DNA of 64,000 nucleotides, from NCBI RefSeq assembly GCF_055900595.2, contig NZ_CM148325.1; one strand, written 5' to 3'. The stretch's first letter is position 1. Each line of letters opens with the position of its first letter. The notes beneath the pieces were generated by a model. The model made no database searches. It was not told the DNA's origin and saw only the letters and a list, made by a program, of their open reading frames with translations. The position numbers and the translations under genes were made by a program. Positions 61,556 through 63,042 of the stretch are shown here, in pieces.

Positions 61556-62023
61556 ATGTCAGAACAAAACAACACTGAAATGACTTTCCAGATCCAGCGT
61601 ATTTATACCAAGGATATTTCTTTCGAAGCGCCAAACGCGCCGCACGTTTTCCAGAAAGATTGGCAGCCAGAAGTTAAACTTGATCTTGATACGGCATCTT
61701 CTCAACTGGCAGATGACGTTTACGAAGTGGTACTGCGTGTTACCGTAACGGCATCCCTGGGTGAAGAAACTGCGTTCCTGTGCGAAGTGCAGCAGGGCGG
61801 TATTTTCTCCATCGCGGGTATCGAAGGCACCCAGATGGCACATTGCCTGGGCGCATACTGCCCGAACATTCTGTTCCCGTATGCTCGTGAGTGCATCACC
61901 AGCATGGTATCCCGCGGTACATTCCCGCAACTGAACCTTGCGCCGGTTAACTTCGATGCGCTGTTCATGAACTATTTGCAGCAGCAGGCTGGCGAAGGTA
62001 CTGAAGAACATCAGGATGCCTGA
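61556..62023 (+). CDS. secB: protein-export chaperone SecB
   Basis: 155 aa [29 protein letters not shown]... Confidence 0.95.
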
Positions 62024-63042
62024 TGAACCAACGTAATGCTTCAATGACTGTGATCGGTGCCGGCTCGTACGGCACCGCTCTTGCCATTACCCTGGCAAGA
62101 AATGGCCACGAGGTTGTCCTCTGGGGCCATGACCCTGAACATATCGCGACGCTTGAACGCGACCGCTGTAACGCCGCGTTTCTCCCCGATGTGCCTTTTC
62201 CCGATACGCTCCATCTTGAAAGCGATCTCGCTACCGCACTGGCAGCCAGCCGTAATATTCTTGTCGTCGTGCCAAGCCATGTCTTTGGTGAAGTGCTGCG
62301 CCAGATTAAACCGCTGATGCGCCCTGATGCGCGGCTGGTGTGGGCGACCAAAGGGCTGGAAGCGGAAACCGGACGTTTGTTACAGGACGTGGCGCGTGAG
62401 GCGTTAGGCGATCAAATTCCGCTGGCGGTTATCTCTGGCCCAACGTTTGCGAAAGAACTGGCGGCAGGTTTACCGACGGCTATTTCGTTGGCCTCTACCG
62501 ACCAAACCTTTGCTGATGATCTTCAGCAGTTGCTGCACTGTGGTAAAAGTTTCCGCGTTTACAGCAACCCGGATTTCATTGGCGTGCAACTTGGCGGCGC
62601 GGTGAAAAACGTCATTGCCATTGGCGCGGGGATGTCCGATGGTATCGGTTTTGGTGCGAATGCGCGTACGGCGCTGATCACTCGTGGGCTGGCTGAGATG
62701 TCGCGTCTTGGCGCGGCGCTGGGGGCCGATCCTGCCACCTTTATGGGCATGGCGGGGCTGGGTGATCTGGTACTTACCTGTACCGACAACCAGTCGCGTA
62801 ACCGCCGTTTTGGCATGATGCTCGGTCAGGGCATGGATGTACAAAGCGCGCAGGAGAAGATTGGTCAGGTGGTTGAAGGCTACCGCAATACGAAAGAAGT
62901 CCGCGAACTGGCGCATCGCTTCGGCGTTGAAATGCCAATAACCGAGGAAATTTATCAAGTATTATATTGCGGAAAAAACGCGCGCGAGGCAGCATTGACG
63001 TTATTAGGTCGTGCACGCAAGGACGAGCGCAGTAGCCACTAA
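62023..63042 (+). CDS. gpsA: NAD(P)H-dependent glycerol-3-phosphate dehydrogenase
   Basis: 339 aa; [13 protein letters not shown]-binding motif; start overlaps secB stop (TGATG). Confidence 0.95.

Follow-up and report, generated by a model that had tools for sequence, protein, structure and literature searches.

When the stop codon of one gene overlaps the start codon of the next, does the overlap tell how the two proteins are made, and in what proportion? The question is raised by secB and gpsA, which lie in a window of 64,000 nucleotides (contig NZ_CM148325.1 of assembly GCF_055900595.2). The window is E. coli chromosome and contains nlpA/setC, selC, yicJI, the frz sugar operon, recG-spoT, pyrE, the waa core-LPS cluster, kbl-tdh and yibN-grxC-secB-gpsA-cysE. 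As an independent annotation reference, we used the NCBI PGAP annotation of strain E400634 (NZ_CM128600.1), which shows 9 mismatches against window positions 5248-64000. A sequence-only reading had pointed to three junctions, formed by the following features.

61556..62023, + strand: secB, 155 aa (ORF list; PGAP "protein-export chaperone SecB"), TGA stop at 62021-62023
62023..63042, + strand: gpsA, 339 aa (ORF list and PGAP), ATG at 62023-62025
62021..62025, + strand: TGATG, secB stop and gpsA start with 62023 as the common base, 1-nt overlap (sequence)
40881..41939, + strand: waaQ, also called rfaQ (ORF list and PGAP), TGA stop at 41937-41939
41936..43060, + strand: waaG (sequence and PGAP), ATG at 41936-41938
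15005..15937, + strand: ROK-family kinase gene of the frz operon (sequence and PGAP), TAA stop at 15935-15937
15918..16598, + strand: cupin gene of the frz operon, D-lyxose/D-mannose isomerase family (sequence and PGAP), ATG at 15918-15920

All three overlaps had been read correctly from the letters. The TGATG of secB/gpsA and the 4-nt ATGA of waaQ/waaG (41936-41939) are in the sequence and have the same coordinates in PGAP, which also agrees that the cupin start at 15918 lies inside the 3′ end of the kinase gene, making a 20-nt overlap (15918-15937). On the other hand, it was wrong that the frz overlap requires the ATG at 15918 rather than 15879. The codon at 15879 is GTG, and a start there would lengthen the overlap to 59 nt. 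Two further co-directional overlaps, of 8 and 23 nt, had been left out.

43053..43850, + strand: waaP, also called rfaP (PGAP and junction census), its ATG at 43053 overlapping the end of waaG by 8 nt (ATGGTTGA, 43053-43060)
35057..35079, - strand: 23-nt overlap of coaBC and dut (PGAP: dut 34621-35079, coaBC 35057-36277; census)

The bare motif is not above chance. Of the 56 annotated stops in the window, 10 have a start-like codon placed so as to give a 4- or 1-nt overlap, and only two of these ten codons are genuine gene starts. The three overlaps count as real because a long conserved ORF starts at each of them. In the junction census, overlapping pairs make up 5 of the 41 co-directional adjacent pairs (12%). 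As the overlapping share is about 15% among ORF/operon pairs in E. coli (PMC5318159) and in most prokaryotic groups (PMC6728339), the overlap frequency in the window is typical for E. coli. Junctions between −8 and +6 nt account for 707 of 2,987 unidirectional E. coli pairs, −4 being the commonest class, followed by −1 and −8 (PMC10666635). The description of the −4 and −1 junctions as standard coupling arrangements thus holds, as they are the two commonest classes. Stop/start overlaps are a textbook, well-documented operon layout, already known and with nothing new in kind, and their discovery value here is small, all the genes involved having been annotated and characterised.

The secB-gpsA overlap would vanish if the gpsA start were mis-annotated and translation began at Met8 (ATG 62044). 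A scan for SecB in one genome per species gave 80 Enterobacterales loci for junction comparison, ranging from Escherichia to Yersinia, Serratia, Pectobacterium and Rahnella; within E. coli, secB is present in 5424 of 5426 genomes. In all 80 species gpsA lies downstream of secB with its ATG overlapping the TGA, and TGATG is kept in 80/80. CAGGATGCCTGATG is unchanged in 78 of the 80 loci.

A start at Met8 has some points in its favor, in that Met8 never varies, the similarity to all solved G3P dehydrogenases starts at GpsA residue 8, and residues 2-4 are hypervariable. Against it, the 80-species junction alignment contains no SD-like motif before Met8, and the 21-nt spacer from the overlapping ATG to Met8 keeps its frame and length in 78 species, measures 18 nt in the other two, and is free of stops in all. 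In the orthologue alignment, codons 5-7 keep their amino acids but change at third positions. Of 57 distinct sequences, 56 have Ala at codon 6, with all four bases in third position, which is a coding signature upstream of Met8. The overlapping ATG is also the one chosen by PGAP and by gene callers on independent genomes. We therefore consider a Met8 start very improbable. Codons 2-7 of gpsA evolve like coding sequence, and because homology to the solved enzymes begins at residue 8, GpsA residues 1-7 are an extension specific to this lineage, running back as far as the secB stop. The orthologue alignment, by its 80/80 count and codon-position pattern, thus places the gpsA start at ATG 62023, where the earlier reading had put it.

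Starts at the other two junctions were compared with solved structures. WaaG residues 1-374 align end to end with E. coli RfaG (2IV7/2IW1), and the ATGA of waaQ/waaG is also present in the K-12-type allele, despite only 74% identity and a 12-nt indel immediately before it. The frz cupin aligns with solved D-lyxose isomerase (3KMH/3MPB) from its first Met (MKRS...); its junction offers no useful diversity among E. coli genomes, where the 1605 copies all show 95% identity or more. The downstream start codons of secB/gpsA, waaQ/waaG and frz kinase/cupin are thus the true ones, and PGAP agrees for all three.

Each of these three pairs lies on one strand with no space for a promoter or terminator between the genes, and K-12 mRNA has been detected over both secB and gpsA ORFs. 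A crude σ70 scan of 60400-63200 found no promoter-like sites where 2.2 were expected, giving no hint of a separate gpsA promoter in that stretch. In the literature, yibN-grxC-secB-gpsA is described as one operon, and secB-gpsA as a natural transcription unit that has been cloned. Mutations in secB are polar on gpsA and gave rise to an LB-sensitive phenotype that was misattributed (Shimizu et al. 1997 as cited in PMC4257090); this polarity could be due to transcription alone (Rho-dependent). For the frz kinase and cupin, co-transcription is suggested by their spacing. A literature search for the frz operon returned no relevant paper. For the waa genes, a JUMPStart element lies upstream of waaQ; this and tRNA-Sec are the only Rfam matches in the window, with none at any junction.

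If the overlap fixed a stoichiometric ratio, secB and gpsA should be translated alike. Published K-12 data, taken under one condition, give ribosome densities of 1983.5 for secB and 103.7 for gpsA, mRNA levels of 939 and 369.5, and TE values of 2.112 and 0.281, respectively (Burkhardt et al. 2017, PMC5318159 Supplementary file 1). From secB to gpsA, ribosome density thus drops 19-fold, TE (per mRNA) 7.5-fold and mRNA 2.5-fold, leaving gpsA with a density of ~5% of that of secB. Protein amounts point in the same direction. SecB makes up 2e-16 g of 0.41 pg protein per cell and GpsA ~1-2e-4 of proteome mass, according to two other papers, from which a rough molar SecB:GpsA ratio of ~5-12:1 (monomers) is obtained. 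The idea that overlap entails stoichiometric production is therefore unsupported, and secB-gpsA is a clear counter-example to reading an overlap as equimolar production. Genome-wide, relative TE varies as much in overlapping pairs as in non-overlapping ones (PMC5318159).

The overlap is not confined to the 80 loci. A −1 junction is kept in Erwiniaceae and other families, as TGATG in Pantoea, Tatumella and strain ESL0689 and as TAATG in Photorhabdus. Near distant SecB homologues (52-66% identity), gpsA is still downstream, with junctions of −1 (TAATG), 0, +15 and +27 nt, and the +15 and +27 junctions, found in other gammaproteobacteria, carry a separate, free-standing SD. As the junction varies in this way outside Enterobacterales, the gene pair can function without the overlap. 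The pair is thus old, and its overlap is stable in Enterobacterales without being obligatory.

What is fixed within Enterobacterales is more than the stop and start. TGATG is accompanied by AGGA 6 nt upstream, inside secB, and both are fixed across the order. The last four secB codons (CAT CAG GAT GCC) are nearly invariant at synonymous sites in the 80 species, and the sequence around them can be folded into a small stem.

62013..62016, + strand: AGGA, SD-like motif for gpsA within the last secB codons, 6 nt before the ATG (sequence)
62009..62025, + strand: predicted hairpin CAUCAGG-AUG-CCUGAUG, 7 bp with a 3-nt loop, dG −8.8 kcal/mol (hypothesis)

The GGA of the SD-like motif is invariant across all 26 junction variants, and the published aSD value of gpsA is −5.18 (Burkhardt et al. 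2017, PMC5318159). Zero entropy is found in 9 of 130 informative secB codon columns, three of which are among the last four codons, a clustering with a post hoc hypergeometric estimate of ~1e-3. These three include GCC, the only invariant four-fold Ala codon of secB, and the mean codon entropy of the rest of secB is 0.83 bits. The AGGA motif and the stop/start bases explain part of this freezing, and the remainder fits a hairpin.

Such a hairpin, spanning the gpsA SD, the secB stop and the gpsA start, could gate coupling. It would mask the SD and AUG of gpsA, melt only when a ribosome reads the last secB codons, and thereby set a low, fixed GpsA:SecB ratio. The full predicted stem, with its −8.8 kcal/mol, is kept in 77 of 80 species. 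His CAT and Ala GCC are invariant at their third positions, which belong to the stem and not to the SD, and such changes as occur in the last four codons are all in the predicted loop (GAC/GAA in Mangrovibacter, UCC in ESL0689). In vivo, the gpsA start is much more structured than that of secB, with DMS Gini values of 0.479 and 0.232 over −20 to +40 (PMC5318159), and the high Gini value of the gpsA head (0.559) goes together with low TE. On the other side, covariation of the predicted hairpin is not significant, the observed score being reached by 49 of 500 shuffles while the 3′ arm is fixed by TGATG anyway. One loop base is also near-invariant, so conservation is not specific to paired bases. 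Only 3-4 bp of the stem remain in Photorhabdus and Tatumella, and distant genomes lack it altogether, although overlap and SD persist. The 80-nt folds around four junctions are no more stable than shuffles (z of −0.54, −0.52, +0.36 and −1.42), and an opening energy at least equal to that of the gpsA RBS (10.1 kcal/mol) is needed at 19% of random internal CDS positions. With no significant covariation, ordinary energy and stem loss in some genera, the hairpin is a hypothesis and not an established element, and gating by it is a tentative possibility that we rather doubt.

The same internal-CDS control disposed of another candidate sign. High RBS opening energy, in which rfaP, gpsA and waaG are the top three of 56 genes, was rejected as a mark of occluded starts, because 10%, 19% and 40% of internal CDS positions, respectively, have opening energies equal to or above theirs.

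How the junctions work was weighed among several readings. In one of them, the junctions would be neutral by-products of genome compaction and drifting stops and starts, with no functional coupling and each downstream gene initiating from its own SD. This would be in keeping with the SD-like motifs that are present, AGGA for gpsA and GGAG for the cupin, with the equal variability of TE in overlapping and non-overlapping pairs (PMC5318159), with the +15 and +27 nt secB-gpsA junctions that have a separate SD, and with how common the bare motif is by chance. It does not sit well with TGATG and flanking synonymous sites that are frozen in 80 species while codons elsewhere in secB average 0.83 bits of entropy, which indicates that the junction itself is under purifying selection. 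In vivo structure at the gpsA start also speaks against free initiation, and comparable native E. coli pairs are demonstrably coupled (PMC6728339, PMC10666635). We thus consider an absence of coupling unlikely. At the other extreme, every ribosome finishing the upstream gene would reinitiate, in a tight coupling of ~1:1, as had been supposed for the two frz enzymes. Such behavior is known from the classic trp and gal junctions (references listed in PMC5318159). Short overlaps are 4.5-fold enriched among E. coli genes for heteromeric complexes; however, only ~30% of short-distance pairs encode complex subunits, and 69.6% encode no complex (PMC10666635). For secB-gpsA, the 19-fold fall in ribosome density and the 7.5-fold fall in TE refute it. 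For frz, the −20 overlap is outside the range of −8 to about +10 nt that is treated as predictive of reinitiation (PMC10666635). Annotation and literature, consulted without a dedicated search, hold no ROK kinase-cupin, SecB-GpsA or WaaQ-WaaG complex; as no pair is known to form one, no stoichiometric requirement is implied. Tight coupling at these junctions is thus highly improbable.

We regard it as probable that these are ordinary operon junctions, with partial, low-efficiency coupling at secB-gpsA that keeps GpsA at a low and approximately constant proportion of SecB. Experiments on other native E. coli pairs have demonstrated termination-reinitiation coupling (PMC6728339). In the present case, the gpsA start site would lie hidden in structured coding RNA, and ribosomes finishing secB would open this site and possibly re-use it. 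Coupling of such low efficiency would yield GpsA at a small portion of the SecB level rather than in equal amounts.

The same coupling is plausible for the other short junctions. The overlaps at secB/gpsA (−1), waaQ/waaG (−4) and waaG/waaP (−8) are within the range of −8 to about +10 nt, and frz (−20) and coaBC/dut (−23) are outside it. For the −1, −4 and −8 junctions, analogy with tested E. coli pairs and the secB polarity data speak for coupling. The tested native −4/−1 pairs, hyfH-hyfI, menD-menH and ydbH-ynbE (Huber et al. 2019, PMC6728339; 2023, PMC10666635), resemble those of the window in having ATGA or TGATG, an SD inside the upstream ORF, co-directional genes and a single operon, and waaQ-waaG, waaG-waaP and secB-gpsA belong to the −8 to −1 class. 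The pairs of the window differ in that ribosome density is ~19:1 at secB-gpsA and that the 20-nt overlap of the frz pair is outside the tested range. The overlaps of waaQ-waaG and waaG-waaP would have the classic geometry of termination-reinitiation, and the waaG SD is a weak AGGU only, 9 nt upstream.

Similar overlaps are known from the E. coli trp operon (Oppenheim and Yanofsky 1980 and Aksoy et al. 1984, listed in PMC5318159). Its trpB-trpA and trpE-trpD junctions are reportedly of TGATG type. They share with secB-gpsA the overlap sequence type and the location of the downstream SD, which is embedded in the preceding gene. The products of the trp pairs are subunits of a single enzyme complex and are synthesized at nearly equal levels, whereas SecB and GpsA have unrelated functions and differ greatly in amount. 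In another kind of coupling, by structure unmasking, the downstream RBS is held in a helix that the upstream ribosome opens, as in rpmI-rplT of the infC operon and the coat-replicase pair of RNA phages. The predicted hairpin at 62009-62025 would likewise bury the SD and AUG of gpsA and contains the secB stop. Unlike those cases, the secB-gpsA structure is predicted and conserved, lacks covariation support and is not in all Enterobacterales.

SecB is an export chaperone, and GpsA makes the committed phospholipid precursor. In a broader proposal, the whole junction (hairpin, SD, TGATG and the 7-codon GpsA linker) would be a conserved regulatory device that ties GpsA to SecB translation at a ratio of ~1:20, and the SecB C-terminal His-Gln-Asp-Ala and the GpsA N-terminal extension would have been shaped by selection at the RNA level and not the protein level. 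We find this rather unlikely. Even so, the frozen secB-gpsA junction sequence and its possible hairpin are the only residue of modest interest here, and the frozen synonymous sites offer a small, testable case of RNA-level selection within a coding region.

The junction also has a bearing on how secB alleles are made and read. The essential gpsA has initiation signals within the 3′ end of secB, which accounts for past confusion about secB-null phenotypes. Edits or deletions at the secB 3′ end should keep ~62009-62025, which holds these signals.

Equimolar production of the frz kinase and cupin is unsupported, and the simpler reading from the sequence is that the cupin gene is most likely translated by simple initiation from its own SD, within the kinase ORF, and ribosomes arriving from upstream would at most lend helicase-like help. 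Its SD, GGAG at 15908-15911, lies inside the kinase ORF with a 6-nt spacer.

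The secB stop and the gpsA start overlap in TGATG (62021-62025), and from secB to gpsA there is no space for a terminator (61556-63042). In K-12, RNA-seq gives mRNA values of 939 for secB and 369.5 for gpsA, a 2.5-fold drop (PMC5318159), which may be produced by faster decay or Rho action on a poorly translated gpsA segment. Downstream, between gpsA and cysE, a GC-rich hairpin without a U-tract is found at 63067-63098 (ATGACCCGGCCCG-CGCAGAA-CGGGCCGGTCAT). The fold of the 86-nt gpsA-cysE region is not significant when compared with shuffles (z -0.79). The hairpin could stabilise the 3′ end of the secB-gpsA transcript or act on it as a weak terminator.

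Codons 2-7 of gpsA (62026-62043) are a lineage-specific N-terminal extension with hypervariable residues at positions 2-4. Residue 8 is an invariant Met, and the alignment of all solved homologues begins there. The extension resembles a linker that places the gpsA start codon at the secB stop, and Met8 (ATG at 62044) may be a second gpsA start.

At the waaQ-waaG junction (41786-42085), E. coli has two allele classes, one with at least 90% identity to the window (~4470 genomes) and the other, K-12-like, with 60-80% (956 genomes). The ATGA shared by waaQ and waaG (41936-41939) is kept in both. At 40793-40831, ahead of waaQ, is a JUMPStart element (Rfam RF01707, 55 bits), which a waa operon dependent on RfaH would be expected to have. 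The genes downstream of the junction include waaO, two GT8 genes, waaY, a GT25 gene and a ligase, and this content suggests an R1-type core.

A third waa-operon junction of this kind, in which the end of waaG runs 8 nt into waaP (rfaP; 43053-43060, ATGGTTGA), was absent from the list of overlaps in the sequence-only reading. The waaP start region has the highest predicted RBS opening energy among 56 genes, 11.4 kcal/mol. Further overlaps between neighboring genes are as follows.

35057-35079, minus strand: coaBC/dut overlap of 23 nt (PGAP)
29337-29340, convergent ends: ligB (plus) and yicG (minus), overlap of 4 nt
56624-56637, convergent ends: waaH (plus) and yibQ (minus), overlap of 14 nt

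The coaBC/dut overlap is long and co-directional, similar to that in the frz operon.

Of 5426 complete E. coli genomes, only 1605 carry the junction of the frz operon (9655-16598), and the identity of the copies is always at least 95%. The operon is accessory, with low internal diversity. No island insertion at selC is present in the window, where this tRNA-Sec gene (5267-5357) directly adjoins the nlpA/yicS/yicL/setC backbone (1-5357). The genomes closest over the remaining window have an integrase/TPR/LacI/MFS island at selC instead. Between pyrE and slmA, at the pyrE-ttk site where retron Ec107 was described, lies a reverse transcriptase gene (32916-33875), whose best match is the PADLOC retron model RT_Ec107-like (E 7e-133).
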